A DNA stretch of 64,000 bases from Dictyostelium discoideum (taxonomy: Eukaryota). Each line of letters starts with the position of its first letter. Position 1 is the stretch's first letter. The DNA lies in assembly GCA_000004695.1 (NCBI GenBank), contig CM000153.2, positions 352,001-416,000 of the forward strand. Direction: 5' to 3'. A program made the translations under genes and the position numbers. Positions 7,274-51,732 of this stretch are shown piece by piece. The notes beneath the pieces are model-generated. The model was not told where the DNA came from, did not search any database, and saw only the letters and a list, made by a program, of their open reading frames with translations.

Positions 7274-8656
7274 TTATTTATTTAAATATTTTTTAATTAA
7301 TTGATCAGCTAAAACTAAATCAATTTTTTCAATATTATAATCATCATTACCTTTAACTAATTCATTTAAGATTTGTTGATTTGCTAAACCAATTTTTTGA
7401 GCATAAGCGTATGGTTGAGTTGAGAAAGAAATTAATTCATAACGACTAATATAACGTGAAGGGAATTTAACTTCTAATAAATGTTCAACCTTTTTCTTGA
7501 AAAGGAATAAAGCATCACCAACATGATCACGCATTTCAAAAAAGTTTTCAACTGCCATTTCAGCAATAGCATCAGAATTTGCTTTTCTATTCTCTTGATA
7601 TTTTTTATAAATATTATTGAAATGATCATTATCAAATGGTTTATCAGTGGAGGATGGGTAGAGTGATTTATCCTCAAAACAATTAAATAATTCTAAAACA
7701 TCTTCAAATGCTGCATTCATACCTTGACCATAGAATGGAACGATAGCATGTGCAGCATCACCAACTAATACTACTTTACCTTGATAATGGTATGGTTCAG
7801 TTTTAACGGTGACTAATGATGAGGTTGGATTCTCAAAATAGTCATCCAAAAGATCTGGCATTAATTTATAGGCATCAGGGAAATAATCTTTAAAGAATTG
7901 GTCAACCTTTTCTCTTGTGTCTAGGGATGAGAAACTTAATGGACCGTCGAATGGGAAGAAAAGGGTGCATGTGAAACTTCCATCGATATTTGGCAAAGCG
8001 ATCATCATGAATGAACCACGTGGCCAAATGTGAAGTGAGTTTTTGTCGATTTGAAATGTTTGATTTGGGCCGCTTGGTATGCAAAGTTCCTTATAACCAT
8101 GCTTTAAATAAGATTGGGAGTAGTCTTGTCTGTCCAATTTCACCATAGATCCTCTGACGGCAGAGAAGGCACCATCGCAACCGATGATTGTGGATGCTTC
8201 GATTGTTTGATTGGAATCTTGAGTTTGAATTGTACATTGCTTCAAATCAATAGATTTACAAGCATCAGAGAATATGAATTTAACATTTTCCAATTTCTCT
8301 GTATGTTCACGTAATCTATCATTTAATAATTGACGTGATACACTATATAAATGTTTATTTGAATCTGAACTGTATGCTTGAAATGTTTGAACACTATCTA
8401 ATGAATGAATCATTCTACCTTTCATTGGTATTGCAATCTTTAATATATCATCAACATATCCTGTCTTTGTCAATGTTTTTACACCACGATCTGATAATGC
8501 TAAATTAATTGATCTTGCTCTAATATTTTCACTTTGTTTTGGTCTTTTTTCTATAACTTGAATTGGAAATCCTTTTTGTCCTAATAATAATGCTAATGCA
8601 CTACCTGCTAATCCACCACCAACAATTGTAATTGGTTTATTTAAAAGAATATCCAT
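7274..8656 (-). CDS. kmo: Kynurenine 3-monooxygenase (FAD-dependent)
   Basis: N-terminal GGGLAGS FAD-binding motif, the stretch ARSINLALSDRG, an internal DG motif and a GDAAH signature. Single 460-aa exon colinear with KMO proteins. Confidence 0.9.
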   Translation of the reverse strand: MDILLNKPITIVGGGLAGSALALLLGQKGFPIQVIEKRPKQSENIRARSINLALSDRGVKTLTKTGYVDDILKIAIPMKGRMIHSLDSVQTFQAYSSDSNKHLYSVSRQLLNDRLREHTEKLENVKFIFSDACKSIDLKQCTIQTQDSNQTIEASTIIGCDGAFSAVRGSMVKLDRQDYSQSYLKHGYKELCIPSGPNQTFQIDKNSLHIWPRGSFMMIALPNIDGSFTCTLFFPFDGPLSFSSLDTREKVDQFFKDYFPDAYKLMPDLLDDYFENPTSSLVTVKTEPYHYQGKVVLVGDAAHAIVPFYGQGMNAAFEDVLELFNCFEDKSLYPSSTDKPFDNDHFNNIYKKYQENRKANSDAIAEMAVENFFEMRDHVGDALFLFKKKVEHLLEVKFPSRYISRYELISFSTQPYAYAQKIGLANQQILNELVKGNDDYNIEKIDLVLADQLIKKYLNK

Positions 8657-8796
8657 TATTAAATTATTTATGAAAAAAAAAAAATAAAAAATAAAAAATA
8701 AAAAAGTGTGATAAAAAATAAAAAAAGAAATTTGATTTTAAAAAATTAATTAAAAAAAAAAAATAAAATAAAATAAAAATAAAAAAAAAAATAAAA

Positions 8797-8841
<45 letters not shown>

Positions 8842-9298
8842 AAAATCATTTTTTTCATTTTTAAAAAATTAAACGAAAACCCAAATCATTTCATTAATTC
8901 ATATATTCCATTAAAAAAAAGAATATATATATACATTTTTAAATTATAAAAATGTTTAGATCATTAAATAAATTATTAATTTCAAATAATTTAATTATAA
9001 AAAAAAATAATATAATAATACCCTATAATTATAAATTTTCAATTAAAAATAATAATAATAATAATAATAATTTTATATATAGGAATTTTTGTAATAATAA
9101 TAATAATAAAAACAATAATAATAATAATAATAATATTGATGAATGTAAGAAAAAATTAAAATTATTATTTCTGAAAAAAAAAAAAAAAAAATTAATTATT
9201 TATTTATTTAATTTTTTTTATTTTTTTTTTTTTATTTTTATTTAATAGTATTTAATAAAACAAGTATACCACCAAATATTGTTTTTAGATTAAATTTA

Positions 9299-10348
9299 AT
9301 GGGTAAAAAAAGTAAAGAGTTAAGGAATATGATTGATAGTAATATGGGATTAGGACAAAGTGAAATTAAGAAAATTTCAAAAGAGTTACAAGAAACTGCA
9401 GAACCATTGGGATATTTTGGAGATTTGATAGAGAAATTAAAAGAATTAAAAGAGTTACAAACAATGTTGGTTGAAGAAACTGATGAGGATGGTAAACAAA
9501 TGATAAAATCTGATATAAATAAATTGAAGCAAGAAGAGATTGAACCATTGGAGAAACAATTACTATTTAGTTTATTACCAGGTAGCAAAGATGATGCAGG
9601 TGATGCAATATTGGAGATTAGGGCAGGCACGGGCGGCAGTGAGGCTCAGTTGTTTACACAGGACGTGTATGAGATGTATCGTAGTTATTGCCTGCAAAAA
9701 GGGTGGACTTTCGAGCCATTGGAGTTGTCAGTCACCGAGGTGGGCGGCTATCGTGACGTGACCGTGTCGGTGTCGGGCAAAGGCGTGTTTGGGTTCTTAA
9801 AGTACGAATCGGGCGTCCACCGTGTCCAGCGTGTGCCATTGACCGAGACCCAGGGTCGTATCCATACGAGTACCATCACAGTGGCTATATTGCCTGAGCC
9901 TAAGGATGTGGATATTCAAATCCACGATAGAGATTTGAAAGTCGATATCTACCGTTCGTCAGGTAATGGTGGCCAATCTGTAAATACCACTGATTCCGCC
10001 GTGAGAATCACTCATTTGCCAACGGGTATAACTGTGGCAATGCAAGATGAACGTTCTCAACATCAGAATCGTTCAAAAGCAATGAAAATCTTAAAAGCTC
10101 GTATCTATGAAAGAGAACGTATACGTTTACAAAATGAACGTGTATCTGAAAGAAATGCTCAAATTGGTTCAGCTTTACGTTCTGAACGTATTCGTACTTA
10201 TAATTATCCTCAAGATCGTATCACTGATCATCGTGTTTCAATAAATGGAAATTTAAATAGTTGTATGAATTCTGATGGTTTGGATTCTTTTATTGATGAA
10301 ATTTTAGTTGAATTCCATACCAAAGAATTGGAAGAATTATTAAGTTAA
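9299..10348 (+). CDS. Class-I peptide chain release factor (RF1 type, probably mitochondrial)
   Basis: GGQ motif in [24 protein letters not shown] and RF-1 domain conservation throughout. A possible presequence exon (MFRSLNKLL...) lies upstream at about 8952..9141, but the splice phase is unresolved. Confidence 0.88.
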
Positions 10349-10368
10349 ATTAAATCAAAAAAAATAGG

Positions 10369-10399
<31 letters not shown>

Positions 10400-10728
10400 A
10401 TTTTTTATTATTATTTTTTTTTTTTTTTTAAACACACAAACAATCAGAAAATAAATATATCTTTTTTTTTTTATTTTCCCAAACAACCCCCAACCTGGTG
10501 ATTTTTCCAAAAAAAATAAAAAAATAAAAAAATAAAAAATAAAAAATAAAAAAAAAATATTTAATTTATTTTTTTTTTTTTTTTTTCATAATTAAAATAG
10601 TGCACACACACCAATAATAAATTTATTTATTTATTTGTTTATTTATTTTATTATCATCACCATTGTGTTCACACGACTAAACTATAAATTATATTATATT
10701 ATATTAAATTATTAAATTATATTTATAA

Positions 10729-12548
10729 ATGAGAAGATCACAATTTACAACATTAACACAATCAAATCAAGATGTTTCAAATACTACCAATATATCACCA
10801 CCACAACCACCACATCAAATAATCAATAAAACAAATTATTGTTTATTAATTAAAGATAATAGTAATAATGAACAAAATGATAAATCATTTACATTAAAGA
10901 CTGTTCAATCAAATTGTTCAGAGTCTTTAGAATTTAATATAAAATCATTCATTTATCAAAAAATAACAAAAAATATGATTTATAAATCTGGTTCTTTTGG
11001 TATTTTAGAAAATAATAATAACAATAATAATAATACTCAAAATCAACCAATTAATAATAGTAATAATGATAATAATAATAATAATAATGATAATAGTGAA
11101 AAGAAATTTACGTTATCATGTTTTTATACAATGATTGAAGTACCAATAATACATAATAATACAAATGATGTTAGTAATAATAATAGTAATAGTAAATCAA
11201 CTCCATCTAGTCCAATGAAATTATCAGTATCAGATTTATTAGAAGATGAAGAATTAATATCAAAAAATAATAATTTTCAAGATGATTTAGAAAATTTAAA
11301 TAGTTTAGTAGATTTCTCTATAAATGATGATTTAGATGATATTGTAAATGATATAGATGGTGATGTTTCTTCACCTTCAAATAAAAATACAACATCAACT
11401 AATCTTACAAAAACAGAGAATGATGTAAATTTAAAAAAGAAACAGCTTGAAAACTCATTAAAGGAATATTATTTATGTTTAGTATGTGAAACAGAGAATG
11501 ATGTAAATTTAGGTTTATTCCATTTAGAAATATCTGAATTTTGTTCATCATTAACAATATTAATTAGTGAAATTATTAATAGTAACAATTGTAATAATAA
11601 TGGTAATAATATCACTGATAGTAATAATAATAATATTAGTATATATAGTGATTTATCAATTCAAAATAAATTATCAAATTGGTATTCAAAATGTATAGAT
11701 TATATAAGTAGAGCAGTTAAATTGTTAGATATAAATATTCAATATATAATTTATTCAACACTTACTGGAAACACTTTTAAAATTATAACTTCACCATTGT
11801 CATCATCACCACAAACATTGGCAACAATGAAAACAATATCAGATGATATAATTAGCTTTTTAAAAACTATTAGTATTGTAAATTTATCAACAAAAGAACT
11901 ATCACCAAATCAATTCATAATTAAACCAGATGAAAGTAATAACTCTGTAATATTTGATAATAGTAGTAGTAGTAATAATAATAATAATACAATTGCAAAC
12001 ACAACAAATTATGATTCAATAGATGATACTACCACTGATAATAATAATAATAACAATAATAATAATAATAATGATAATCTATTTATAATCGAAATAAAAG
12101 AATCTGAAGAAAGTAATGATAAATTTAATATTGTTTTAAATAAACATGGTAAGTTTTATTATTTATTATTTATTATTTATTAAGCTGTTTATTAATTTTT
12201 ATTTTTATTATTATTTATTAATTTAAATTATTAGATGATAATTTATTTTGTAAGAAATGGTCAAATAAATATATTGAAAATATAAATAATTCAATTTCAC
12301 TTAGAAATTTATCAGAGGATTTAAAATTGAAGGTTATTCAAGAATTCAATATGTTTAGAAGAATGATTGATATTTCAACTTTAAATAATTATTTATTATA
12401 TAAATCTTTTCTATTTCTAAGTTGTAATGATAATAGTGATATTCTTTTATACCTTTTAAAAAAAGATAACATTCAAGATATCAAAGAGGTTTTAATAGTT
12501 TTAGAGAATCAATTAAAACAACACCAACTTAAAATAAATAATAATTAA
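10729..12548 (+). CDS. Hypothetical Asn/Ser-rich protein. Exons are 10729..12148 and 12235..12548.
   Basis: Long ORF with several poly-N tracts. The donor CATG|GTAAGT at 12149 and acceptor ATTAG|ATG at 12234 keep the downstream ORF (KVIQEFNMFRRMID...) in phase. Confidence 0.55.
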
Positions 12549-32293: not shown

Positions 32294-32754
32294 TTTATTA
32301 TACTATTAAGATTATTAATTATTATTTAAAGAAAATAAGGTGGCTAGTTTGTTGTATGAATTAATGAGAAAAAAAAAAAAAAAATTAGTAAATAAAAAAT
32401 TATTTATTTTATATATATGTTACTATTATTTATTATCTATTTTGTTTGTTAAAATTACCTTTTTTTTTTAAAGTGTCAGGGTTTTTATAAAATAAAAAAT
32501 AATAAAAAAAAAAATTTTATTTTTATAGGAAAAAAAAAAATAAAAAAAAAATAAAATTTAATTAAAAATATCTTTTAAAAAAAAAATTTTCAAATAAAAT
32601 AAAAAAAAAAATAGATTTTTGAGAGGAGTATTCAGATGTTTATTATGAAAATAATGAAATAGTCAAATGTCACTTTTGGTGTGTGGAGGGGGTGTATTAT
32701 AAAAAACTCGTAGAAATGTTTATGTTTTTAATTTTTATTTTATTTTTTTTATTT

Positions 32755-32785
<31 letters not shown>

Positions 32786-34040
32786 GATTAATAAAAATAA
32801 AGGACAACTATTTTTTTTTATTTTTTTTATTTTTATTTTTATTTTTATTTTTATTTTTATTTTTATTTTTATTTTTATTTTTTTTATTTTATTTTATATT
32901 ATTTTATTTGTTTATAATAATATCTAATTATTAGAAATTATATTTGTAATTATTTAGAAATCCACCAACCAAAAAAGAATTTAAATTAAAAAATAAAGGT
33001 AAAAAAAAAAAAAGTAAACTGATCGTGTCCTTTTTTTTTTTTTTTTTTTCATTGGATATTTAAATGAAAATAGATTAATATTTACTATTTTATTATTTTT
33101 TTTTTTTTCACTCCAATTGTGCCAAATTACAATTTTTTCCCCCTTTTTTTTATAAACGATTTAAATATGATATAACCATTATTATAAATTATTCAATGAG
33201 TTTTCATTTTGAAATTTAAATTTAATTTATTGTTTTTTTCACTTATTTTTAAAATAATATTTTCATTTTTTTCATTTTATTTTTTTTATTATTTTTTAAT
33301 ATGGATTTAGTATTGACAAATAGAACACTCGAAAATACATAAAATGATATCATAAATAAAAAAAAAAAAAAAAAATTAAAATGAAACAAAAAATAAAATA
33401 ATTATTTTTTTTTTTATTTATTTTATTTCTTTTTTAATCACAATTTTTTTTTTTTTTATTAGTTTATAATTATTTACCATTCATACACAGCAACAATGCA
33501 GTTTACTTAATAAGGATGCATTGATGAACCTGATAATCAAATGATAGAGAAAGTAAAGAAATTTCAATGTCATTATGGTTAATTTCAATCATTTAAATCC
33601 AGTGTCAGGGATCAAGGAACGATTATAAATCTATCTACTATGACATTAAGAATGATAAACAAATAAAAAAATTTTATTTTTATAAAAAAAAGCAAATTAA
33701 TAAATATAAATATAAACAAAATTTATTTTAATTCCAATGGATATTGTTTTTTTTTTTTTTAATTTTTATCATTTATATTGGTTAATATTAAATGATATTA
33801 ATATTATAATATTTATTAAAAATGTATATATTTATTATATAATATTAAAATGATTTTTTTTTTAAAATAAAGTTTTTTTTTATTTTTTTAATTTTTAGTT
33901 TTTTTATTTTTTATTTTATATGTACAATTAAATAAATTTGGATAATGAATCAACAGTCTCACCTAACCATTCAAAATTATGATATTCTGCAATACTTTTA
34001 AAGATAATTAAACTAAAATAAAAAAAAAGGAATTAGTCAT

Positions 34041-34079
<39 letters not shown>

Positions 34080-34093
34080 ATAATAATAAAAAC

Positions 34094-37000
34094 TTACTCT
34101 TTAGAAAATAAATTATTTGATTGAGTACATTCCCATTGACCAGAACATTGTGGACAAATATCACCAAGGTTATCAGATTTAACATCATTACATTTTGAGC
34201 ATCTTAAATCTTGTAATTGATAAGATAATGAACGTCTTTGAATGATTTCAACTAATTGACTTTCGATAGTATTTTTAGAATAATGACCTTTACATTGAAT
34301 ACAAGATAATTCTGGAACTCTAATAATATTGTCATCATCACCTTCATTTTCTTCATTATCATCATCACTATCATCACTGTCATTGTTGTTACTCTTTTGT
34401 TGAGAAGATAATCTTGAAGAGATAGAAGTTGTATTTGTATTTCTTAATAAATCAATATCTCTACATGAATGACAAGATGAACAAATTACATCAGGTAAAG
34501 TGAAAGACACGCATGGATCTTTGAATTTAGCTTCATCAGAGAATTCTCTAACTTTCATTGATGTCATTAATTTCATTCTTAAACGTGATACTCTTGATGA
34601 GATTGATTTATCAATTGATAATACATGACAAACGAATTTAATGAATTCTAATGGTGGATTATTTAATTTCAAATAACCACCTGGTAATTGTGGAAATTCT
34701 AATGATGATTGATTAACTTGGAAATGATCCAATAATGTAAAAATACGATTAACATCAATTAATAAATCAAATTTAGATGTAGCTTTCTTTGTTTTTGATG
34801 TAGTTGTAGTTGTTGATGATGATGAAGATGGTGGAATACTAATATCTTCATCCTCTTCTTCATTCCAAGTTGAACTTTTTCTTAAATCTGGTTTAGTTGG
34901 TTCATTAATAGTATCTTTTGTAGTTGTTGTTGTTGCTGCGGTTGAATCATTATTAGAGGAGGAGGAAGTTGTACTAATTTTTTGTTTTAATAAATATCTT
35001 TGTTGTTGTTCTTTTTGAATTCTATTTAATTCATCTCTTTCAGTATGCAATTTATAAATATAATCTGAAATGATAATAATGAAAGAAGTTTGAATTTGTG
35101 GTGGTAAAAATTCTGCAATATTCCAATTGGTTATGATTTTACCATTTTTAATTTTTTTTAATTTTTTATTTTTATTCTGTTGTTGCTCTTCTTCATTTTC
35201 AGATACATCATCATCATCGTCATCATCAGCATTATCTTGTTGTTGTTGTTGTTGTTGTTGATTTTTATTAATTAATGGATTAAAATATAAAATACCAGAA
35301 TAATTTGAATTATTTAACCATAATAAATTATGATAATAATTTGTTTGTTTAAAATTAATCCAACTAAATAATTCTTTCTTTTTAATTACAGCCAAGATAT
35401 AGTTACAATAAGAACGAGCATCTTCAATTGAATCCTTTTGAGAACAAATGATAATCTTATTGAAATTTGCATAAACTATTTTACTACCCAATTTTTTAAA
35501 TTCGAAAATCAATTGAATGAAAACTTTTTTCATTAATTGATGTAAAGTACGATAAAGGATAGGATCATAAAGTTTTGAATTGGTCGAGCTAATCCAACGA
35601 TAGAAATGTAATAAAAGATAATTTGAATAACGTGAACTAATTTCATTTCTTTTACTATTACTACCTGATACTAAATCCAATTTCCATTTTGATACTAAAT
35701 TTCTAAGAATATTAAATTCTTTTTCACAACCACTAATTTGATGATTAATTGCTGATCTAAATTTATTTGTAATTGATAATTTATCAAATGATGATGTTGT
35801 ATCATTTGTAGTATTTTGATTTGCACCATTTTTGGTATTGGAATTATTTGAAGTATTTTTAATATCATCAAACATTGCAACATTTGATTCATCACCTAAT
35901 TCATTACCTAAAATACCTTCAATTTCAGCCAAATGAATTGATTCCAAGATTGTATTTGTTGCTAAATTTTCAATATCCAATTCGAAACAAACTTGATTAT
36001 AACAATCTGAATTATTAATTTCAACATTATTTAATTCTTCATAGAATTTTGCATCATCTTCTTCTGAACCACCTAAATCTGGGAAGTTTGAATCAGACAT
36101 CCAAAGGAGATGTTTTTGTTCAACCAAAGAACGAGCATAGAGAATATCACACATGAATGATGCATTATCAGTTGGAATATTACCAATGGGTATATTTGCA
36201 TAACGTGACATATTTGCATAGTAAACCCAAAGTTTTGGTGCATCCATTAAACGTAATGGTAAGGGTTTCAATGAATGAACATCCCAATTGAATGGTGAAT
36301 ACATTGAATCGTTGTCATGGTAAGGTACTGGTACACGTGGGAATTCTCTAAGTATTGGAATTTGTTCCAATATTCCAATTGCATTTGGAACTTGTAGTAG
36401 AATGATAGTTGGTAAACCTTTACGTTGATATTCCATAATTAATGAACCAATTTCTTTTTTTGCCAAAGACATACTTGATTTTTGGTCCATTGTAAAGGTG
36501 ATTTCTGGTAGTTTCTCCTTTATGGAATTCAATACTCTTGCATCGATTTTGTTGGCGGCCATATAAGGATTTGAGAAAATAACTGAACATTGTTGAGTAT
36601 TCATATTGAAAAGAACGAAATAACCGTCTTTTCCATCACGACTATTATGATACAAAAAGAGTTGATTAAAGTTATGTTCTGCAAGATAATGAAATTGTTT
36701 ATCAGGTTTTGAAGCGATATCCTCCAAAGAGAATCTTGTGTTACTATTGACTATTTTAGTAAAGAATGGTGATACTCTTGACAAAGTAGCTACACAACCA
36801 CATTGAATAATGGCTTTAATATCCAATGGTACCTTTGTTTCATAGACACCCTCAATCATTGGATTGGTGAATAGTGTATTCAATTCCTTTGATTGTTCTA
36901 AAAATTGACTTTCACTCATTGTCACTGAAAAAACATTAAATCTTTGTTTACCTCTTGGTGGTATTACATTTGTATTCTTTTGTGCATCTTCATATGGATC

Positions 37001-40000
37001 GGTATCAATTGAATTTAAATAAAACACTCTACCAATGTCAACTTTAATTGGTATCAATTGATCCTCAATCAATGACCACATTTGATAAATACCTGGTTCA
37101 CCGCCATAAATTGGTTCAATCGATATAATATTCCAATATCCTTTTTTAATTATATCTGATTGACTCTTAAAGAATGACGATGATGAACTTTCTCTATTTG
37201 TTAATTTTGAACCAATTCTAAAACTATCACTATCAAATAATGATCCACCTAATCTTTGTCTTCTCTTTTTTAATAAACGTTGAATTTTCCATTTCTTTTT
37301 TGATATTGATAACCAACCTTGGAAATCTTTATCAATAGATGGTGTTTTAGTTTCCATAATTTGTTTTTCTTGTTCATTTGTAAATGTTTCAATTGATGAT
37401 TTTGATTTTTTAATTAAAAGACTTGAAACATCACTTGATGATTGTTTACTTCTTTTAAATTTAGTAACTTTTGGATTAAATGCTGGTAAATCTTTAAATC
37501 TTGATGAAAACATATTTTCAATATCATCAGTTTGTTGTGGTTTCGAATTATCATTATCATTATCGTTATCATTATCATTATCATTATCATTGTCTTGATC
37601 ATTATCTTCAGTTTTTTCAAAAAATGAAGTAATTGAAGTTTGTTGACGACCATCTTCATTTCTTCTAATTTCTTTTAAAATCCAATCTGGATGAATAACA
37701 CGTGGTACTGGATTTGTAACATTTTGAAGTGCAGCAGGAATTGTAATAATTTTTTGAATTACACCAGATAAACGTTGACGATAATAATCCCAATCGATTA
37801 ATTCACGAATATCTAAATCACCACTTGGAGATTTTGTCCATCTTCTAAGATAATGACAACGAGTTTCAAAATCTGCATCAAAAATTGCAACTGGTAAAGC
37901 ACGTTCAGTAATTGGTGAACCGGCTGGTTTATTGGAGATAATGTATTGACATGATAAACCTTTATCCTTGATCATATCGTCACCTAAAAACTCTGCTAAC
38001 TTTTTGGCAGTACTAATAGCTGAACTCTTTTGTGTACCATATTCTTCTAATTTTCTACTCATATTACTACTTTCGGTAATTAGTTCTATTAGATCCTTTT
38101 CTTCATAGTTTTCAGCATGACTATCTAGAATGTCTAACCAACGATTTGCAACGGCACCAACCGACTGATAACAGCCTTCCAAACTATCACCACCTAAAAA
38201 TTCTTTAAACACTTCAGATTGGAAAAGTTTAATCAATTTCAATTCACCACGTCTTTTAATTTCGAAACCTTTTAATTCACAAATACGACCTTCACGATTG
38301 AATACAGCGTAACGTTTCTTTAATTTCACATCTTTCTCTTTACTAGTTGGAATTAACATACAACGATAAGGACCATCACATTCGAATAGAATGGAACATT
38401 CGTCACGAATTGTATAAGTGTTGGTTTCAGCATTGTAATCTTGGTATTGATGATTTGTGAAACTTTTTGCAACTTTTTCATTCAACATTTCGCAAATGTA
38501 AGAAAAAGTAACTTTTTTACCAGTACTGGCTGATTTTAATGTGTAATTCTCTGGGAAATGTGATGGAAGTATACACCAAATACCATCGGTATCAATCTCT
38601 AATGGTCTACCCATTTGCTCTACCACTTCTCTTGCTTCTTTAATGATGTTTGAACCTGTATGTGTTACAATACCTGCCATTTGCATAGAATACCAACGAG
38701 CACCTTTTCTCATTACATAACCATAGAAAGAGTTTAGAATACACTTGTGAGCTAATTGAAGACTTTCATAGAGTACAACCATACCTTGTGCAGCTACCAC
38801 AGCAACACTATTGGTACCACCAGATTCTTGCATTGCTTGATCATACTTTATCTTCCAATCACGATGATGATTCTTGAAAACATAACGACGATCACGGAAT
38901 AGACGTACAGTATCGACGTAGAATGAATTTTCACGCATACAAATAGTGTCGGAACGAATTTCTTGTGTGATTTGATGGGTTTTTCTATAGACTTTTCTAG
39001 AGTACTCTTTTAAACGTTTTCTTAATAATTCATTACGTTTCTCTTCACTTAGTGATAAGAATGATTTTCTTTCATCTCCATCACCAAATTTCTCAGATTC
39101 CAATTGTTGTAGAATTAAACGATACTCTGACTGATTCGATGGTGAATAGTCACCCCTCCATTGCCAGTCGAGAGTACGTTGACATTGAGACTCTGGTTTA
39201 TTGTAGACACAAGTGGCACAAACCTCGTCATTGACCACTGCAGTTGGTTGAAGTTTATTGGTGAGAATAATATTGGGATACATAGCAGACACATCAAGAT
39301 GGTAAATTAATGGATGTGATTGTTGTTTTGGATTCTCTTTTAACAATGTGAATTTCTTTAATACGTCTTCTTTCACTTCTTGATAATTACTAACGGTATC
39401 TAATGGAATGCCGCCCTCCTTCAATGCAAACTTCAAAACTTGATCAATGTTACCCATATGCTTTTCAATTGAAGCAGGGTCTAATGAGAAATTAGTTGGA
39501 ATATCTGATCTGAATACACCAGACTCTAAACACTCTACATGACCACCCACATAAGTCTCGCTCTCTAATAAATGACCCTTATACATACTATTAATATCAT
39601 CCTTATGTTTATTTGGAAATATTACATCAGCTTTAAAAGCTTGAGTCATTAACAAGGCTTCACATAATGTACCTGAACCTTTTCTAAGCACATCGTCTGG
39701 ATTCATTGGAATAATTGTACAAAGTGAGAAAATGAATGGATGAACATAATTCATATAGAGATAATAAGTTGCAACTGCATCGGAAACTGAGTAATTTGCT
39801 AAAGTTTCAGGATCCTCTTGAGCAGATTTTAACATTAACTCTGGATCCAACTCTAATGGATCGTATCTTAACTTTTCTCTTGTGACCGCTTTCAAACCGT
39901 GACTGCCATGTGGAAGATAACTGTCTCTCTTCACCCAGCAAAATGCATCCATATGAGGGTTGATCTTACTTCTATACTCGCCATTATCATTTCTAAATCC

Positions 40001-41596
40001 AATCTGATGAAACATACTCAAACCATGATACTCTGCTCTACTTTCAACAAAAGGCCAATCAAACATATCACCATTGTACGATACGAATATATGGGGTTTC
40101 TCTCTTTTAATTTCACTGAAAAACCTCTCCAATACTGATTTCTCATCGGGTTCATTAAAAACGGTGAATGGGCCATAATATTCAGGCTTTGGAGTATATT
40201 CGAAATCTTTGATATCCTCAGACACGATTTCACGATTTACAATTAAATAACCTTGTTTATCCAACATATAAGAGATCATCATAATTGAATCAATTGAAGA
40301 ATCTGGAAATTTCAAAGGTAGCTTAGTAGTTTCAATATCATATGCCAACACTTTTGGATCAGGTCTATCAACACGAGTCGTTAATTCATTCACTGTTGTC
40401 AATCTACCATTCTTTATAACTGTATACCATAACCCAACACGAATATTTAAATCAATTGCTGCTCTAACATAATATGGTACATCATATTCTCTAATATCTA
40501 ATATATATTCAGTTGCTTGTTTATTTAATTTACTATTATTATTATTATTATCATCTTTATTTAATTCTTTATTAAAATTATTATTATTTTGATTATTATT
40601 ATTATTATAATTTTGATGATTATTATTATTATTATTTCCTTTATTATAATATGAATTTAAAATTTTATTTAATGATTCATCTTCATATGCTTCACTTGTA
40701 TTTGATTTTTGTTTATTTCTTTTAATGATTGGGAATAAATCATTACGAACTGATAAAAGTGTTGAAACGTTATGAAAACGAATTTTTAAATATTTTCTTT
40801 TTAAACCTGATAAATGATTCTCTAAATCTAAATCCTCTTTATCCATAATATCAATACCTGCTATATCTTTTTCATAGGTACTCTTTAAATATGATTCTAC
40901 TTCTGATTGATGACCTTCCTTTACATAAATATAAAAATATGGATTATAAGGTATCCATACTCTAAATGATGTTGCATCATCTTGAATAAAAAATAATTCT
41001 AATGAAGCTTTTTCAATATCAAGTCCATCTTTTGATGATCCCTGGGGAGGGGGTTTATAAATAAAAAATAAAAAATAAAAAATAACAAATAATAAAAAAT
41101 AAAAAAATTTATTATTTTGGGGGTGGTAATAATTTGAAAAAATTATTAATTTGGTAATTTAAAAATAGAAATGAAAAAATAAAAATAAAAATAAATATAA
41201 TTATTAGTATAAAAAAGGAAAATTTATTTATATCATAATTAAAAATAGAAAAAAGTAAATTACTATTATTATAATTTTAAGATTTTATTTAGATAGTAGT
41301 TATAATAATAATAATGTGGTGGTGGTTGTGGTGGGTAGTGTGTTTATGTGTGATTTTTATATAAAAATAAATAATTTATAGCAATTGCTATTTATGAATG
41401 TTTATTTGATATTAATCGTTTATCGTTGTTTTTTTTATTTTTGAAAAAAAAAAAAAAAAAAAAAAAAAAAGGTACTACTTACAGGTTGCATATTTAATAA
41501 CCAACCCTCCTTTTCATAATTTTTGAAACCAACATATTTATCGTTTTCATCTTTTTCATCTTTATTTTTTTTATTTTCATTCCATTTTTGAGACAT
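34094..41596 (-). CDS. DNA polymerase epsilon catalytic subunit A. Exons are 41483..41596 and 34094..41043; the intron is 41044..41482.
   Basis: Exon 1 MSQKWNENKK...EGWLLNMQP has donor |GTAAGT, and the acceptor CCCCAG|GGA leads into GSSKDGLDIEKASLELFFIQDD...EDLDLENHLSGLKRKYL. Exonuclease motifs DIETTKLPLKFPD and YNGDMFDWPFVE are present, along with family-B polymerase motifs (YHLDVSAMYPNII, LDTDGIW) and C-terminal CysX2Cys zinc modules. Confidence 0.95.
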
Positions 41597-42506
41597 GGTT
41601 TGATTATTATTATTATTATTTTATTATTTGCGTGTGTTTTTACACACCTTTGCTATTATTACTTAAAATGATAACAATTGATGTGAATTATAACACTTTT
41701 TTCATATAAAAAAAAAGTAATTTTTTTAATGAAAGAAAAAAAAAAAAAAAAAAAAAAAATAAAAAATAATTTTACAAAAAAAAAAAAAAATAAAAAAAAA
41801 AAACCCGCCAAAAATTTATGGAGGGAAATTGGATGAAAAATAATTTTGTTTCTGAAAATAAAAAAAAAAAAAAGAAATCTTGGATATTTTAAATACACCA
41901 AACACATATAATTTATATTAATATAATAATAATTTTTGGTTATACTAAAAAATAATGATTAATATAATTTCCCCCCTTTTCCCCCCACCACCTAATAATA
42001 TTATTGCTTTTATTTTTATATGATGTTTTAAAAAATCAATACTTACACATATCTAAGTACACCATTTCTTTATCCATAAAACACTAATAATTAATTAATA
42101 GTTACATATATGTAAATGCATAATTCATTATTACTATTTTTATATCAATCACCCCTCCACACATTTTTTATTAAAAAAAAAATAAAAATGAAATAAAAAA
42201 AAAAAAAAAAAAAAAAAAACTCTAGGAACCACATGGTGAAAAAGGGAAAGATCATCTTATATCTTTAAAAGTAAAAAAAACATGTGTTTTTTTTATTATT
42301 TCAAAACTTATTTTTTAAAATTTTTTTCATTTTATTTTATATTATTTTATATTATTTTTTATTATTTTTTAAAATTATTTGATTTTTTTATTTGTTTTTA
42401 CTATTTAAACTTTTATTTTTTTTTTTTTTTCATTTTCTTTTTCAAAGTTTTGAAATAATTTATACATTTACATACATAAATACACCAATTAAAATGATTT
42501 AGAAAG

Positions 42507-42546
<40 letters not shown>

Positions 42547-42761
42547 AAAAAGAAAAATTAATAAAACAAAAAAAAAAAAAAAAAATAAAGCTTACTATTA
42601 TTTATTATATTTATATATACATATAATATATATATATATACGATTAGTATTAATACAACCCATAAGAAATAAAAAATAAAAAAAAATAAAAAATTTAATA
42701 AATAAAAAAAAAAAAAAATAATTAAATAAAATAATAATAATAATAATAAAAATATAAAAAG

Positions 42762-44456
42762 ATGATAAAAAATAATAGTAATGAAAATATATTAGTTATA
42801 AATTCAAATGATAATATTGAATTAGAATTAGAAAGTGATTTATTATTATATGATAATAATAAAAAGGAAATGTTTATAAAGAAAGAGAAAAAGATAAAGA
42901 CAATAAATATATCAATAGTATTTGCAATATTATTTTTTGGTGAAGTTGCAAGAGGTATAATTATTCCAACAATAAATTACTATTCAATATTGGTAGGTGG
43001 TACAGCGACGACATTGGGAATGGTGATATCGGCATTTAGTGCCGGTAGATTTTTAGCAACGATAGTACTTGGTTATTTCTCGAAATTCGATACCTATAAA
43101 AACATATTCAACATATCAATGGTACTTTGTATTATCGGTTCACTTTGGTATAGTTTCAGTTACATAGACCAAGGTAATCCGTTCATTGGTCAATCGTCAT
43201 TGGTAATTTCAAGATTCGTTTTGGGATTTGGTGCTGGTACATTGAGTACTGCACGTTCATTCCTCGCTGATATAACCATTCCATCAGAGCGTACCACTTG
43301 GATTGCACTATCATCAGCACTCCAATTCCTTGGATTTGCAGTTTCACCAATCATAGGTTCACTCCTATCCTATATACCACCCTTCTCAATTGATGAAGTT
43401 ATTAAAATAGATTCTATAACTTTACCTGGTTGGTTTTTAACATTCCAAAATTTCATACTTTTATTAATGATCATTTTCTATTTTCAAAATCCAACTTTAA
43501 ATCAATTAGCATCAAATAATAATAATATGATTAATTCATCATCAGATTTAAATTTAAATAAAAAAAATAATAAAAGTGGTAGTAATAATAATAGTGATAA
43601 TGAACAAGATGATTTTGAAATCGAAAGTTCATCATTAAAAAGTAGTGGTGGTGATGGTGATGGTGGTGATGGTGGTGGTGGTGGTGATAGTAGTACTACA
43701 CAATTATTATTAAATCAACAATCATCAAATAATTCAAAACAACAACAACAACAACAACAAAATCAATCAATTTATAGAATATTATATAATAATAAAAGAA
43801 TTTTTATAAATTTAATTATATTTATAATTTTAAATTTCTTTATTAGAGCAATACTTGGTATTTATGAAACATTAGGTTCAACATTCTATAGTAAATTAGA
43901 TACTAGTATTAATAGTAGTACAAATTCTGGTTACTTTTTTGGTAGTATGGGATTCTTGGGTATTGTATTATTGCTTGTTATAAGTTGGCTTTGCAAAAAG
44001 GAATTGCTACATGACTATTGGATATTATGCTTTGGTAATTTAATAATCACGATTGGCTGTTTCGCAACTATGGTTCATCAATTAAGTTGGACTCGATTTG
44101 TATTTGGTTATATTTGCATTTGGGGCATTGGTTTCACTTTGGCTCAAACCGTCGTAGTTTCAATGTTTTCAAAAATTCTCTCAAACACAATTGGTAACGC
44201 ATCTCAAGGTACTTTAATTGGTATCATCACTGCAAGTGGTTCATTGGGTCGTGTAATTGGTCCATTATTCTCGGGTTTACTCTATAATGAAAATGACCTC
44301 TTACCATTATTCTCTTTTGCTTTTGCTTTATCTTTAATCATATTATTCTCTTCAATTTTAATGATTCCAAAAGATATTTTAAAAATTAAATATTTAAATC
44401 ATAATGATAATAATAATAATGAATATAATGAAGAAAATTATAATTTAATAAAATAA
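42762..44456 (+). CDS. Major facilitator superfamily (MFS) transporter
   Basis: There are about 12 hydrophobic helices. The loops GFGAGTLSTARSFLADITIPSERTTW and GSLGRVIGPLFSGLLY are MFS-like. A central low-complexity loop carries poly-G/D and poly-Q. Confidence 0.7.
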   Translation: MIKNNSNENILVINSNDNIELELESDLLLYDNNKKEMFIKKEKKIKTINISIVFAILFFGEVARGIIIPTINYYSILVGGTATTLGMVISAFSAGRFLATIVLGYFSKFDTYKNIFNISMVLCIIGSLWYSFSYIDQGNPFIGQSSLVISRFVLGFGAGTLSTARSFLADITIPSERTTWIALSSALQFLGFAVSPIIGSLLSYIPPFSIDEVIKIDSITLPGWFLTFQNFILLLMIIFYFQNPTLNQLASNNNNMINSSSDLNLNKKNNKSGSNNNSDNEQDDFEIESSSLKSSGGDGDGGDGGGGGDSSTTQLLLNQQSSNNSKQQQQQQQNQSIYRILYNNKRIFINLIIFIILNFFIRAILGIYETLGSTFYSKLDTSINSSTNSGYFFGSMGFLGIVLLLVISWLCKKELLHDYWILCFGNLIITIGCFATMVHQLSWTRFVFGYICIWGIGFTLAQTVVVSMFSKILSNTIGNASQGTLIGIITASGSLGRVIGPLFSGLLYNENDLLPLFSFAFALSLIILFSSILMIPKDILKIKYLNHNDNNNNEYNEENYNLIK

Positions 44457-44518
44457 ATAAATAATTTTTTTTTTTAAAATTTACAAATTTATTATATCAT
44501 TAAATATTATTATTATTA

Positions 44519-45346
44519 TTACTTTTTGAAATTTCTAATCATTGTATAAAAGTGTGGTGCATCTTGTGTATTTGAATGTTGTTGATAAAATTTTGAAGTT
44601 TTAAAATTATGAGTTTTAAAGAATTGAGTGAATTCTAAATCACATTCAGTATAGATTGAAGCATTTTGACTATCAGCTAAATTTAAGACATGTTGAATTA
44701 AATCACTACCTCTTTTACTACGTCTATAGGAATGTTCAATTGCAATACAATTTAAATACCAATGTTTGTTTGGATGATTTTTCATCTCAGCTTGATGTAT
44801 ACGTTCTGCGAAATCTGATGATTTTAAAATTCTTGATAAAACTGATACACCCAATTTAATTGGTGCCATATACATACCAACTTTAAACATCTCTGCAATG
44901 CTAACACCATTTACATCATGTGGTGGTTGTGCTATCATTATACCACTAATTGTTTGTTTATTATTATTATTATTATTACTATTATTACTATTATTATTAC
45001 TATTATTATTAAGTTCAAAACATCCCCAAACTCTTGCTTTTTTTAAAGCATAGGTTAACATTTTATTACAAAACCAAGTTCCACCACTGATACGATATTC
45101 TGGTGAATTGTTGAAAAAGAAATTCATAAATATATCCTCACGTGTTGATTTCTCTAATAGTATTGCTGCTTCTTGAATATCATCTTGACAAAGTTCTCTT
45201 ATTATATATGGTTTATTTTTTGGTGTTTCTTTTATAGCTTTTTCTCCATTATTATTATTATTATTTATATCTCTAAAGTTTTCAATGTTTTGAATATTTG
45301 ATGACGATGATTCATCTGGTTGTTGATGATGTAATTGTTTATCTTT

Positions 45347-45384
<38 letters not shown>

Positions 45385-46077: not shown

Positions 46078-46212
46078 CTCGATATTAAATTTTTTTTTTT
46101 TTTATTTTTTTTTTTTTGTTGATTAAATTTTTTTTTTTTTTTTTTTTAATTTTATTTTATTAATTTTATTTTTTTTAAAACCAAATTAGAGTTGAAGGAT
46201 TAACCAATATTT

Positions 46213-46570
46213 TTGGATATTGATAGAAAAGAGCTTTCCATGGAAAGTAAAAAAAATAAAAATAGTAAAAAAAAAATAAATAAAAATAAAATTAATAAAA
46301 ATAACAATAAAAATAAACAACATGACAGATTATTAGGTGGTACTTCTATCACATGTGTTGATCAACTACAACAACAACAACAAAAAAAACAACAGCAACA
46401 ACAACAACAACAAAATATAACTTTAAATTTTGAAATTTTACCAAAGAAATCGTTAGAGAGTTCAAAAATATTTAGAAATTCAAGAGTAATTTACACTACA
46501 TATGGAAATGTGAGTTTAGTTAGTGCTAATCAAACTGGTTTTTTCCCTAATAATAATAATAATAATAATA

Positions 46571-46654
<84 letters not shown>

Positions 46655-46960
46655 GTAATAATAATGAATATAGTCTTTGTGTAAATAAAACTAAAAGTCT
46701 TGGGGATAAAATTGGACAACTGAATGAAAAAATAGAACAACAAGAGAGATTACTTGAAACAACTAAAATAAATGATAGTCCAACTGACAGTAAAAACAAT
46801 AGTAGCAATAACATTAACTGTAGCAGTAGCAGTAGCAGTAGCAGTAGCAGTAGCAGTAGCAGTAGCAGTAGCAGTAGCAGTAGCAGTAGCAGTAGCAGTA
46901 GCAGTAGCAGTAGCAGTAGCAGTAGCAGTAGCAGTAGTGGTGGCAGTTACAGTAATATTA

Positions 46961-46991
<31 letters not shown>

Positions 46992-47035
46992 TAGTAATAA
47001 TAATGCTAATAGTAATAATAATAATAATAATGATG

Positions 47036-47089
<54 letters not shown>

Positions 47090-47952
47090 GTAATAATAAT
47101 AAATGCCTTAACAAACCTGTTTTTTTGTGTTGTAAAATAAAAATCTGTCTTGATTGTGCATTAGAATCTCATCCAAAACACAAATATGCTTTAATCGAAA
47201 ATAATCATAGTAATAATAAAAGTGTACTTGACAATAATGATAATAAAAAAACTGTTATTGATTTAAATCAACAAAAGGAACTACCAACTGAAGATAATAT
47301 TTTAAAACCTCAAGCACTTCCAAAAGATGAAATTAATGATATTGCAGAGAAAACAAAGGATTTGAAATCAGTAAGGTGTAGTTTTCATAACAAAAATATA
47401 AACTCTCTATGTATATCTTGTGAGTTGGTTCCATTATGCGAGGAGTGCAAGACTAATCACAGAGGACACGAATTAGATAACTTGGATGAAAAAGTTGGTG
47501 GTTTTTTCAAGAGTTTAGACTTAAAACGACTTTACACAGATCTAAATAATGAAGAAAACTCTAAACATATAAATAAATATGCAGATGGGAATTTTTCTAA
47601 AGACTTCAACGAAATTTCTCAAGAATTTGAAAAGAAATTTAAAAAAGAAGTAATTTCTGTTCAAGAACAATTCAATAAACGAGATTCGGATTTCATAAGA
47701 AAAAAAACCAAACTTGAAGAAAAAAACAAATGTTTAATAGAAATGGGGGAACGTGTTTTAGAAAATGGTCATTTATATAATCCAAACTCTTTGAACGAAT
47801 CAGTTCACTATTATCAAAGGTTAATAGAATTGGTCCTAATTTCAAAAGAATTAGGGTTTAAACCAATAGATTTCCGTTCCTTGTTTCCTACAATTAGTAA
47901 ATTTTTATCGGAAATTAAAACCCTCGAAACTGATATCAATAATTTTTTATAA
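46213..47952 (+). CDS. B-box zinc-finger protein with poly-N and poly-S tracts (family member 1)
   Basis: B-box-like Cys/His clusters are CLNKPVFLCCKIKICLDCALESHPKH and CSFHNKNINSLCISCELVPLCEECKTNHRGHELD. The C-terminal region LIEMGERVLENGHLYNPNSLNESVHYYQRLIELV is shared with the 55180 gene. Confidence 0.7.
46830..46936 (+). repeat. (AGCAGT)n hexanucleotide repeat encoding a run of about 36 serines in B-box gene 1
   Basis: Direct reading. It lies inside the ORF and in frame. Confidence 0.9.
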
Positions 47953-49317: not shown

Positions 49318-51732
49318 TTTTAATAGATAATAATGATAATATTAAAATAATAGTACCAAAAGATGTTGAATCATTGTCCTTAGATGGTTTAAAACAAGAA
49401 TTAATTATTGACTCAATTCCTAATTCTGTAATTCATCCCCCTTTAGAAGATGAATTCAATAAATGTACATTACACCCAAACAAAGACATAATATCCTTGT
49501 GTTTATATTGTGAATTAATGCCATGTTGTGCTCTATGTATATCAAGTGAAGGGGAGCATCATGGTCATAATTCTGATTCATTAAAATCAACTTCAAATAT
49601 TCTTTCATTAGCGAAAAATTTTAAAGATGATATATATCAAAAAGTAATAGGCAGAATAGAATCAAATCAAAAAATATTAAAAAAATCAAATGATATATAC
49701 TATGAAATTAAAAGAATTTACGATATTATTTCAATGATAGATTTAGATATTAAAAAACAATTAGAAACAACCTTTGACGATAATACATTAATAATAAATA
49801 CAAGTATAACTTCAATCAATAATGAAAATGAAATACTCTCAACAATAATTAATAATAATAAACATAACGATAATGATGTTGATAATGGTCAAACAGTAAT
49901 TGAAATATTAAATCAAATTATTATAAAAAACAATCAACAACTTGATAGAGATACAATTAAAATTATTAAACAATATCAACAATCATTAATAGTATTAAAT
50001 AATTATAATAATATATATAATTTTAATAAATTAAAAGAATATAAAAACCAAAGTATTCATTTTAATAATCAAATAATTGATGATATTAAAAATAATTTAA
50101 ATTCAATTTATATCTTAAATGACACTAATATTCATAAAAATAATAGATACAAAGTAGAAATCGATGAAAACAATAATGAATTTATTAACTGTAAGTTTTA
50201 TTTATACAAATTTTTTATAAATGATATTCACAATCTTCTAATTACCAAATATAGATGATGGTTTAAAGTTTTATATTTATACATATAGTGATTCTTTTAA
50301 ATTAAAAAATGGTTGTGGTATAGCATTTACAGACCATTGTAATATTTTATCAAAATTAAAAAATAAATTACCATTAAATGTAATGCTGTTAGATGGATTC
50401 AATCAAAAATTAACACCAGGTATATTACCAGAAGGTGTTCAGTTATTGTATTTAGGTGATATTAAACAAGAATTAATGATTGGTTCAATTCCTAAAACTG
50501 TATTTAATGTCTATTTACTTGATGGATTCAATCAAAAACTATTACCAGAACGTGTTCGATCATTGCATTTAGGTGATATTAAACAAGAATTAATGATTGC
50601 TTCAATTCCTAAAACTGTATTAAGTCTCTATTTAGAAAATGGATTCAATCAAAAATTAACACCAGGTATATTACCAGAAGGTGTTAGATCATTGTATTTA
50701 CGTGATATTAAACAAGAATTAATAATTGGTTCAATTCCTAAAACTGTATCTAGTGTCCATTTAGAAAATGGATTCAATCAAAAATTAACACCAGGTATAT
50801 TACCAGAAGGTGTTATATCATTGTATTTATGTGATATTAAACAAGAATTAATAATTGGTTCAATTCCAAAAACTGTATATAGTGTCCATTTAGAAAATGG
50901 ATTCAATCAAAAATTAACACCAGGTATATTACCAGAAGGTGTTAAATTATTGTATTTAGGTGATATTAAACAAGAATTAATGATTGGTTCAATTCCTAAA
51001 ACTGTATCTAGTGTCCATTTAGAAGATGGATTCAATCAAAAACTAACACCAGGTATATTACCAGAAGGTGTTAAATCATTGGATTTAGGTGATATTAAAC
51101 AAGAATTAATAATTGGTTCAATTCCTAAAACTGTATCTAGTGTCTATTTAGAAAATGGATTCAATCAAAAATTAACACCAGGTATATTACCAGAAGGTGT
51201 TGAATCATTGGATTTAGGTGATATTAAACAAGAATTAATGATTGGTTCAATTCCTAAAACTGTATCTAGTGTCTATTTAGAAAATGGATTCAAACAAAAA
51301 TTAACACCAGGTATATTACCAGAAGGTGTTAAATCATTGCATTTATGTGATATTAAACAAGAATTAATGATTGGTTCAATTCCTAAAACTGTATTTAGTG
51401 TCTATTTAGAAAATGGATTCAATCAAAAATTAACACCAGGTATATTACCAGAAGGTGTTAAATCATTGCATTTACGTAATATTAAACAAGAATTAATGAT
51501 TGGTTCAATTCCTGAAACTGTATCTAGTGTCCATTTAGAAAATGGATTCAATCAAAAATTAACACCAGGTATATTACCAGAAGGTGTTAAATTATTGCAT
51601 TTAGGTGATATTAAACAAGAATTAATAATTGGTTCAATTCCTAAAACTGTAACTGAAGTGGTTATTTTTAGTAGTTTTAAACTACAAATTAAACCTTATG
51701 TTTCTGATACTGTTAAAATAACTATCGTGTAA
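48627..51732 (+). CDS. B-box zinc-finger plus FNIP-repeat protein (family member 2). Exons are 48627..50190 and 50255..51732.
   Basis: Two B-boxes are CIHHNRDLVVFCLSCCYPCCVECMASEKHHYHDF and CTLHPNKDIISLCLYCELMPCCALCISSEGEHHGHN. The donor AACT|GTAAGT at 50191 and acceptor ATATAG|AT at 50254 join in phase (..EFIN-Y-DGLKF..) into 17 tandem FNIP units (LENGFNQKLTPGILPEGVKSLYLGDIKQELMIGSIPKTVSSV). Confidence 0.65.

Follow-up and report, generated by a model that had tools for sequence, protein, structure and literature searches.

GC-biased gene conversion (gBGC) at a long-lived hotspot is a known process that generates local clusters of AT-to-GC substitutions, with precedents in the mouse gene Fxy at the pseudoautosomal boundary and in many human accelerated regions. 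Here, we describe a comparable cluster in a 64-kb stretch of the Dictyostelium discoideum AX4 genome (hereafter, the window, to which all coordinates refer unless stated otherwise), where the nuclear gene for a release factor 1 of the mitochondrial type (RF1) carries a compact island of G/C-ending codons. Like the gBGC tracts of Fxy and the human accelerated regions, the RF1 island represents a short burst of A/T-to-G/C substitution with a lineage-specific jump of GC content at third codon positions (GC3), the orthologues of sister species being unchanged; it is also independent of protein change and lies beside normally evolving sequence. Unlike those tracts, it is found in a genome of 78% AT and in an organism devoid of Spo11, spans only ~0.35-0.47 kb and is located wholly inside a coding exon. 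Furthermore, the Arg CGT, Pro and Ala families are exempt from the change, and the hotspot is one that we infer.

Several other described systems share part of this pattern. Horizontally acquired or mosaic bacterial genes of D. discoideum likewise display atypical local composition and codon usage and belong to families with bacterial members, but the protein segment encoded by the RF1 island tracks the dictyostelid tree, and its changes are synonymous and gradual. Dictyostelium exons adjacent to lost introns have a raised GC content attributed to cDNA-mediated biased gene conversion (PMC4683709), so that gene conversion has already been invoked for locally GC-enriched exons of D. discoideum. 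The effect in RF1, however, is far larger and lineage-graded. In addition, the reading frame of the exon that carries the island aligns unbroken (tblastn) in D. firmibasis, D. citrinum and D. purpureum, which, short of a formal intron comparison, suggests no intron loss; with no coincident loss apparent, we rejected intron loss followed by cDNA conversion as the source. Finally, clusters of rare codons proposed to assist co-translational folding also consist of contiguous codons of a reportedly non-preferred kind inside a folded domain, whereas the RF1 island is missing in sister species whose protein is the same, avoids CGC, CGG, CCG and GCG, and has a counterpart in an unrelated neighbour, the gene for kynurenine 3-monooxygenase (KMO).

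The comparisons described below show that the RF1 island arose in place: ~350-470 bp of A/T-ending codons were swapped singly for G/C-ending synonyms, leaving the protein nearly unchanged. The island is not foreign DNA, and is probably the footprint of a local recombination or repair hotspot favouring G/C. It is thus a lineage-specific AT-to-GC substitution cluster in an organism where such a force was thought to be missing: D. discoideum lacks Spo11 and has been reported to be free of gBGC (PMC8321536, PMC6369745), and it serves as a gBGC-free reference in studies of selection on codon usage. A more general lesson is that strongly atypical composition within a gene does not amount to evidence of horizontal transfer.

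An island of G/C-ending codons in the RF1 gene

The window as a whole has a GC content of 0.218. Against this background, the segment 9590-9900 reaches 0.540, compared to 0.282 at 9299-9589 and 0.301 at 10050-10348 (the remaining parts of the reading frame are at ~28% and 30-34%). The most GC-rich 200-bp segment of all 64 kb, 9701-9900, with a value of 0.575, lies here, and merely 0.56% of 200-bp segments reach 0.50. The initial annotation, made from the sequence alone, had pointed to a GC-rich codon island at about 9590-9900 inside an RF1 gene of dictyostelid origin; the measured 54% versus 21.8% GC establishes this anomaly as real, with somewhat wider limits (~9560-10030), and both the gene and its dictyostelid origin had been given correctly. 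A sliding GC3 analysis across the reading frame confirmed that the excess resides at third codon positions, GC1 and GC2 shifting little: codons 131-150 have a GC3 of 0.75-0.85, compared to 0.00-0.25 for flanking codons, and 63 of the 104 codons 98-201 end in G or C, versus 31 of the 196 codons of the flanks (Fisher p = 4e-15; binomial tail 5e-25). When GC3 was computed in 60-codon segments over the long ORFs of the window, the maximum, 0.72, fell on the RF1 island, while the runner-up among real coding frames had 0.43. Maximum-likelihood segmentation delimits the GC3 island at 9611-9958 on the plus strand (log-likelihood ratio 34; GC3 0.62 inside, 0.18 in the rest of the ORF), with a core at 9690-9850 (GC3 0.75-0.85). 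The full zone of excess AT-to-GC substitution within the D. discoideum complex, as defined by internal-branch counts and a site-by-site matrix, covers codons 88-245 (9560..10030, plus strand). The abrupt return to AT-rich codon usage that had been described for both sides holds for the 5' edge, which is sharp, but not for the 3' edge, where the excess fades gradually until ~10050.

The response of individual codon families is uneven. Codons gained in the island are GGC, GTG/GTC, GAG, ACC/ACG, TCG, TTG, CAG and CTG; most of the new ones end in G (GTG, GAG, CAG, TTG, TCG), and GTG, GGC, TCG, ACG and CTG are largely absent from the flanks. G/C-ending codons went from 0/14 to 13/13 for Val and from 0/11 to 10/11 for Gly, and Glu, Thr and Leu switched almost completely. 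By contrast, Arg CGT is unchanged at six of six positions in every strain and never becomes CGC or CGG, none of the four Pro codons switched, Pro and Ala mostly keep A/T endings, and CGC, CGG, CCG and GCG are avoided in the island. This unevenness is significant by the hypergeometric test (p = 9e-7), for a grouping picked after viewing the data. Accordingly, the codons originally listed as typical of the island stand for GGC, GTG, GAG, ACC and TCG but not for CGT, which is equally used in the flanks. Since GGT turned into GGC whereas CGT, with the same preceding base, never turned into CGC, the pattern suggests that mutations were subsequently filtered by codon.

The gene carrying the island is a nuclear gene for RF1 of the mitochondrial type, with the coding sequence join(8952..9144, 9249..10348) on the plus strand, a product of 430 aa and a 104-bp intron. 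The exon junction was derived by reading the sequence and comparing it with orthologous gene models (P0001). Exon 1 (8952..9144, plus strand) starts with ATG at 8952, encodes an Asn-rich N-terminal presequence region and ends before a GTAAG donor at 9145; the two exons together encode 430 aa, which matches the length of D. discoideum AX4 peptide chain release factor 1 (XP_639198.1 / P0121), to which all three RF1 segments tested by blastp are 100% identical. The intron (9145..9248, plus strand), bounded by GTAAG and TAG, is extremely AT-rich (GC 3-9%) and lies outside the island. Exon 2 (9249..10348, plus strand) encodes the PCRF and RF-1 domains, with PLT and GGQ motifs, and the stop codon, as judged from Pfam matches and identity to AX4. 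Within the ORF 9299..10348, Pfam assigns residues 6-195 to PCRF (PF03462, E = 2.9e-56) and residues 203-312 to RF-1 (PF00472, E = 2.6e-40). The RF1 family is defined by the GGQ motif of peptidyl-tRNA hydrolysis and by the PxT tripeptide. Both are present in the translation, the former within SGNGGQSVN and the latter as the tripeptide of stop codon recognition, identifying the product as a class I release factor of the RF1 type. At the middle position of the tripeptide, RF1 codon 181 (9839-9841), all five sequences of the D. discoideum complex have Leu (TTG); D. firmibasis and D. citrinum have Glu (GAG) there, and Asp occupies the position in D. purpureum, Polysphondylium, Heterostelium and Acytostelium. 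The change to Leu at this codon involves two bases within the island and is not an AT-to-GC change. The public RF1 model of D. purpureum (P0009, 226 aa) is N-terminally truncated; the 349-residue AX4 exon-2 ORF aligns over its full length and without a break (tblastn) with the genomic sequence of that species (L005 2620-3672).

Native origin and stepwise growth of the island

To trace the history of the island, we compared the syntenic locus comprising KMO, RF1 and the Njmu-R1-like gene in D. firmibasis, D. citrinum, D. purpureum, P. violaceum, H. album and A. subglobosum, as well as in two further D. discoideum isolates and two cryptic sister strains, cf. discoideum 1 and 2, so that the complex is represented by five sequences. 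The isolate genomes come from bioRxiv 10.1101/2025.08.01.668227. The KMO-RF1-Njmu gene order is kept from D. discoideum to Heterostelium.

An atypical patch of this kind within one exon had been interpreted as gene conversion or horizontal transfer with a bacterial, organellar or otherwise foreign RF1 as the donor. Besides GC content and codon usage that differ from the rest of the genome, this reading could draw on the many alphaproteobacterial relatives of the RF1 family (~50% overall identity). However, the protein segment encoded by the island is 96-100% identical within the D. discoideum complex, 93% to D. firmibasis, 91% to D. citrinum and 76% to P. violaceum in blastp searches, while the best bacterial matches, which are alphaproteobacterial, reach only 60-65%. 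The ranking of blastp matches follows the species tree, as it does for the flanks, and the segment is better conserved than the flanks. Where the island departs from its counterparts in sister species, the change is nearly always synonymous; for example, it differs from that of cf. discoideum 2 at 38 of 312 nucleotides and at no amino acid. At the DNA level, where the bacterial comparison covered E. coli, a blastn search with 9560-10030 against 5,426 E. coli genomes yielded no meaningful match, retrieving only the conserved-motif core of prfA (72-74% identity over 73-86 bp, E = 2). Given that the island protein follows the species tree and that E. coli prfA shows no meaningful DNA similarity, a bacterial or organellar prfA-like donor is excluded; the stepwise, interleaved gains described below and the gradual 3' boundary also speak against a transferred patch. 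Distant donors are thereby refuted. The donor that is left would be a close relative outside the sample whose RF1 has the same protein sequence but GC-rich codons; invoking it would merely move the question elsewhere, and we regard a foreign patch of any kind as highly improbable. A chimeric assembly or contaminating reads in the reference, for which the odd composition alone could be cited, are excluded, because the island is in frame, lies in conserved synteny and is carried by five independent assemblies, AX4 and four of other isolates, at graded strength. Even jointly, transfer and artefact retain only a very small probability. Thus, the initial annotation is partly supported: it was right about the anomaly, whereas its preferred explanation by a transfer patch is rejected. 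Nor is the island an ancient, selected feature shared by related dictyostelids, the closest sister species being without it.

Across the sampled taxa, GC3 of codons 98-201 rises in a graded manner, from 0.14 in D. purpureum, 0.17 in D. firmibasis and 0.27 in D. citrinum to 0.30 in cf. discoideum 2, 0.55 in cf. discoideum 1, 0.61 in AX4 and 0.64 in the two other D. discoideum isolates. Parsimony on a ladder-like tree places 6, 11, 16, 9 and 4 AT-to-GC gains in these codons on successive internal branches, with just three changes from GC to AT. In the site-by-site matrix, the G/C sites of less advanced strains are spread over the whole island and do not form one sub-tract. Since the G/C sites are interleaved in this way, the island was built cumulatively, and it is still changing. 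In the broader zone of codons 88-245, internal branches carry 62 AT-to-GC and 8 GC-to-AT changes, compared to 19 and 11 in the rest of RF1; against the sequence of RF1 and KMO outside the islands, taken together (43:33), the difference is significant (Fisher p = 1.7e-5). The magnitude of the shift also stands out from local fluctuation. In 60-codon segments, GC3 of AX4 exceeds that of D. firmibasis by 0.57 in the RF1 island and by at most 0.28 in the controls, namely, the genes for DNA polymerase epsilon, an MFS transporter, a 356-aa product and a Njmu-like protein, for which the means per gene are 0.00 to -0.06 (SD 0.04-0.08).

These counts bear on the possibility that mutation itself is locally biased, that is, that repeated rounds of error-prone repair synthesis, or a site prone to lesions, raise the rate of A/T-to-G/C mutation. 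In line with such a bias, the island has diverged within the complex by 4.2-10.5%, compared to 1.6-3.5% for non-island coding sequence, an approximately threefold elevation that also holds for synonymous divergence. Transitions account for 50 of the 62 AT-to-GC changes in the island, and a junction rearranged between species lies ~2.3 kb away. In yeast, GC-rich DNA reportedly increases the rates of both mutation and recombination (Kiktev et al. 2018, as cited in PMC8321536). On the other hand, exchanges between A and T or between G and C are not raised (10 per 158 codons inside the island, 12 per 191 outside), and neither are GC-to-AT changes. Swaps at an equal rate argue against a general mutation hotspot, so that a single class of mutation would have to be affected. 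Such a bias would also have to oppose the mutational equilibrium of the D. discoideum genome, which lies at ~12% GC (PMC8321536). Moreover, the pattern in RF1 is symmetric with respect to strand, ancestral A-ending sites having switched in 46% and T-ending sites in 39% of cases, and the conversion of GGT but not CGT to the C-ending synonym indicates filtering after mutation. Taken together, we consider a purely mutational origin unlikely. Strand asymmetry as such, examined as a possible mark of replication- or transcription-linked mutation, was rejected as inconsistent, RF1 being symmetric and KMO moderately biased towards T-to-C.

A twin island in KMO and a proposed local bias towards G/C alleles

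KMO (7274..8656, minus strand) is transcribed divergently from RF1 and contains a weaker twin GC3 island at 7920..8220 (minus strand, codons ~146-245), ~1.5 kb from that of RF1, as indicated by its GC3 gradient and branch counts. GC3 of KMO codons 146-205 is 0.05 in D. purpureum, 0.20 in D. firmibasis, 0.25 in D. citrinum, 0.23 and 0.24 in the two cf. discoideum strains, 0.40 in AX4, and 0.45 and 0.50 in the other D. discoideum isolates, in one of which (L008) 20-codon segments reach 0.7-0.8. On internal branches, AT-to-GC and GC-to-AT changes number 31 and 6 in the KMO island, compared to 24 and 22 in the rest of the gene. In AX4, the KMO island is no bigger than the largest fluctuation among the controls. 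Because KMO is functionally unrelated to RF1 and yet shows the same lineage gradient, the effect is not gene-specific.

The twin island is relevant to the possibility that nucleotide content itself has been selected, be it as a cluster of slow codons pacing folding or mitochondrial import, as a GC-dependent chromatin or nucleosome-positioning element, or as a means of tuning expression down. Strong local selection had been offered initially as the fallback to transfer. In its favour, the change is directional and has been kept up over several branches, Val (13/13) and Gly (10/11) switched whereas Arg CGN (0/6) and Pro (0/4) did not, and RF1 and KMO both encode mitochondrial proteins, KMO acting, as we assume, in mitochondria. 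The gained codons (GTG, GGC, TCG, ACG, CTG) end in G or C and are largely missing from the flanks, while the preferred codons of D. discoideum are reported not to be GC-rich (PMC8321536). This last combination, with gains that mostly end in G, also means that the island is not the result of translational optimisation. Against selection, an unrelated neighbour drifts in the same direction, and sister species with an identical protein segment function on AT-rich codons. Furthermore, the island varies more from strain to strain than its flanks do: D. discoideum strains differ from each other at 4.2-4.4% of island positions and at 1.6-1.7% of non-island coding positions, so that no specific sequence is being kept. 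The island does not look like a designed pause cluster, as other usable G/C-ending codons (CGC, CGG, CCG and GCG) are avoided. There is also no excess of RNA structure, both strands of the island folding less stably than shuffled sequences (z = +1.36 for plus and +1.43 for minus). Selection on nucleotide content is therefore not the best fit, and we deem it improbable to about the same degree as mutation bias. A structured RNA or antisense element was likewise rejected: in addition to the folding results, Rfam has no match at E <= 1 in 8500-11000, and ARAGORN found no tRNA in the window. Canonical G-quadruplex motifs with runs of at least three G are absent from the whole window, which contains only weak two-tetrad patterns.

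The RF1 substitutions are clustered, biased from AT to GC, symmetric between strands, indifferent to the gene concerned and persistent over speciations, and they are not accompanied by a rise in A-T or G-C swaps, a class that biased conversion would leave untouched; taken together, this is the signature of a local fixation bias. The same features are those by which gBGC tracts are recognized, namely, a cluster of substitutions with a raised rate relative to its flanks and a strong AT-to-GC excess without raised swaps. We infer that the cause may be a persistent, narrowly localised fixation bias towards G/C alleles, most likely in the form of gBGC at a long-lived recombination or repair hotspot around the divergent KMO-RF1 pair. 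In such a scenario, mismatch repair of heteroduplex DNA would resolve A/T:G/C mismatches to G/C, and purifying selection at the codon level would act on top of it, vetoing the worst codons, so that Arg would stay CGT and most Pro and Ala codons would stay A/T-ending. As a side effect, the most conserved part of RF1 would have been filled with G-ending codons of the kind reported to be non-preferred in D. discoideum, and the island itself is probably without function. The genomic context is consistent with this scenario. D. discoideum undergoes approximately one crossover per Mb per meiosis, mostly in A/T-rich noncoding DNA (PMC6369745), and the two islands flank an A/T-rich noncoding region. 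We assign gBGC at such a putative hotspot a probability of about one half. The more far-reaching proposal, that the locus is a direct fine-scale footprint of gBGC at a narrow hotspot which has persisted across the D. discoideum complex in a Spo11-less organism reported to be gBGC-free, is more tentative and falls somewhat short of even odds.

Several observations weigh against gBGC. On terminal branches, AT-to-GC and GC-to-AT changes are similar in number (9 versus 15), in contrast to internal branches (62 versus 8). The parsimony tree comes close to a trichotomy for AX4, the other two D. discoideum strains and cf. discoideum 1, and at codon positions 1 and 2 the ratio of AT-to-GC to GC-to-AT changes is 7:4 in the island and 6:8 outside, both being small counts. 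In the KMO island, T-to-C changes at codons ending in a pyrimidine predominate (22 versus 6 A-to-G), and these may also stem from codon preference. The zone between the two islands, comprising KMO codons 1-140, the intergenic region, RF1 exon 1, the intron and the part of RF1 that encodes the N-terminal domain, stays extremely AT-rich, and such a cold zone is unlike a simple promoter-centred conversion gradient. The RF1 island, in turn, lies wholly within a coding exon and includes no noncoding DNA. Finally, published tests at the scales of 5 kb and of chromosome halves report no gBGC in D. discoideum (PMC8321536), and chromosome-scale evidence for gBGC is mixed (PMC5635611). Tests at 5-kb and chromosome-half scales, however, could not reveal an island of 0.4 kb. 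As for the terminal branches, similar recent numbers are to be expected in an island that has become GC-rich, and they are equally compatible with mutation bias, so that fixation bias and mutation bias are not separated by them. A contrast of polymorphism with divergence was uninformative for a related reason: the raised GC content of the island shifts mutational opportunity by about the same factor. A literature search for earlier descriptions of the RF1 island or of AT-to-GC clusters in Dictyostelium returned nothing relevant.

Whatever its mechanism, the climb of GC3 from ~0.17 to ~0.7 over less than a kilobase within one complex, against a mutational equilibrium of ~12% GC, implies that a strong local force favouring G/C exists. 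If gBGC is responsible, it would be able to overpower locally an AT mutation pressure that ranks among the strongest of any eukaryote known, and AT-to-GC clusters could be used to map the start sites of Spo11-independent recombination. Natural strains differ at dozens of island sites, which makes the locus directly testable; AX4 or AX2 reportedly form macrocysts when paired with the other D. discoideum isolates.

Surroundings of the islands and other GC peaks

KMO and RF1 diverge from an intergenic region (8657..8951) that is cold, with a GC content of 2-13%, and KMO codons 1-50 have a GC3 of ~0.00 in every member of the complex. When AX4 was compared with cf. discoideum 2 across 8600-9199, AX4 had G/C at 8 of the differing sites and A/T at 17, that is, no AT-to-GC excess. 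On the other side of RF1, a segment of ~33 kb (~12,600-45,400) is inverted relative to D. firmibasis. In the latter (L011 1013-18827), sequence corresponding to window positions 32487-45384 runs straight into 12587-4366 in reverse, whereas cf. discoideum (L012) has the same right-hand junction as AX4. In D. purpureum, the gene next to Njmu is the AtuA-like gene found at 25.9-26.7 kb of the window. The junction ~2.3 kb downstream of RF1 thus appears prone to rearrangement.

Smaller rises of GC3 are found elsewhere in the window. In the DNA polymerase epsilon ORF (34097..41158, minus strand), codons ~311-370 (~40,050-40,230) have a GC3 of 0.37 in AX4 and 0.08 in D. firmibasis, and D. firmibasis shows local rises of its own, exceeding AX4 by up to 0.23. 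Small islands of this type may thus appear and disappear in either lineage. Two other GC peaks were considered as further islands and rejected. The first, 60204-61523 (plus strand), is a Cys/Pro-rich ORF with a GC2 of 0.63 and a GC3 of 0.16, in which amino-acid composition causes the high GC content; this ORF has a Ser/Ala/Thr-rich tail and contains the second-highest GC peaks of the window (0.48-0.53). The second, 46771-46950 (plus strand), owes its GC3 of 0.43 to a long poly-Ser run, a repeat effect, in the ORF 46213..47952, the product of which is B-box-like and Asn-rich. A protein search with the low-complexity ORF 46204-47946 gave no matches. The ORF 50383-51732 (plus strand) consists of highly regular tandem repeats of ~40 residues (GFNQKLTPGILPEGV...IKQELxIGSIPKTV) with an FNIP-like appearance.

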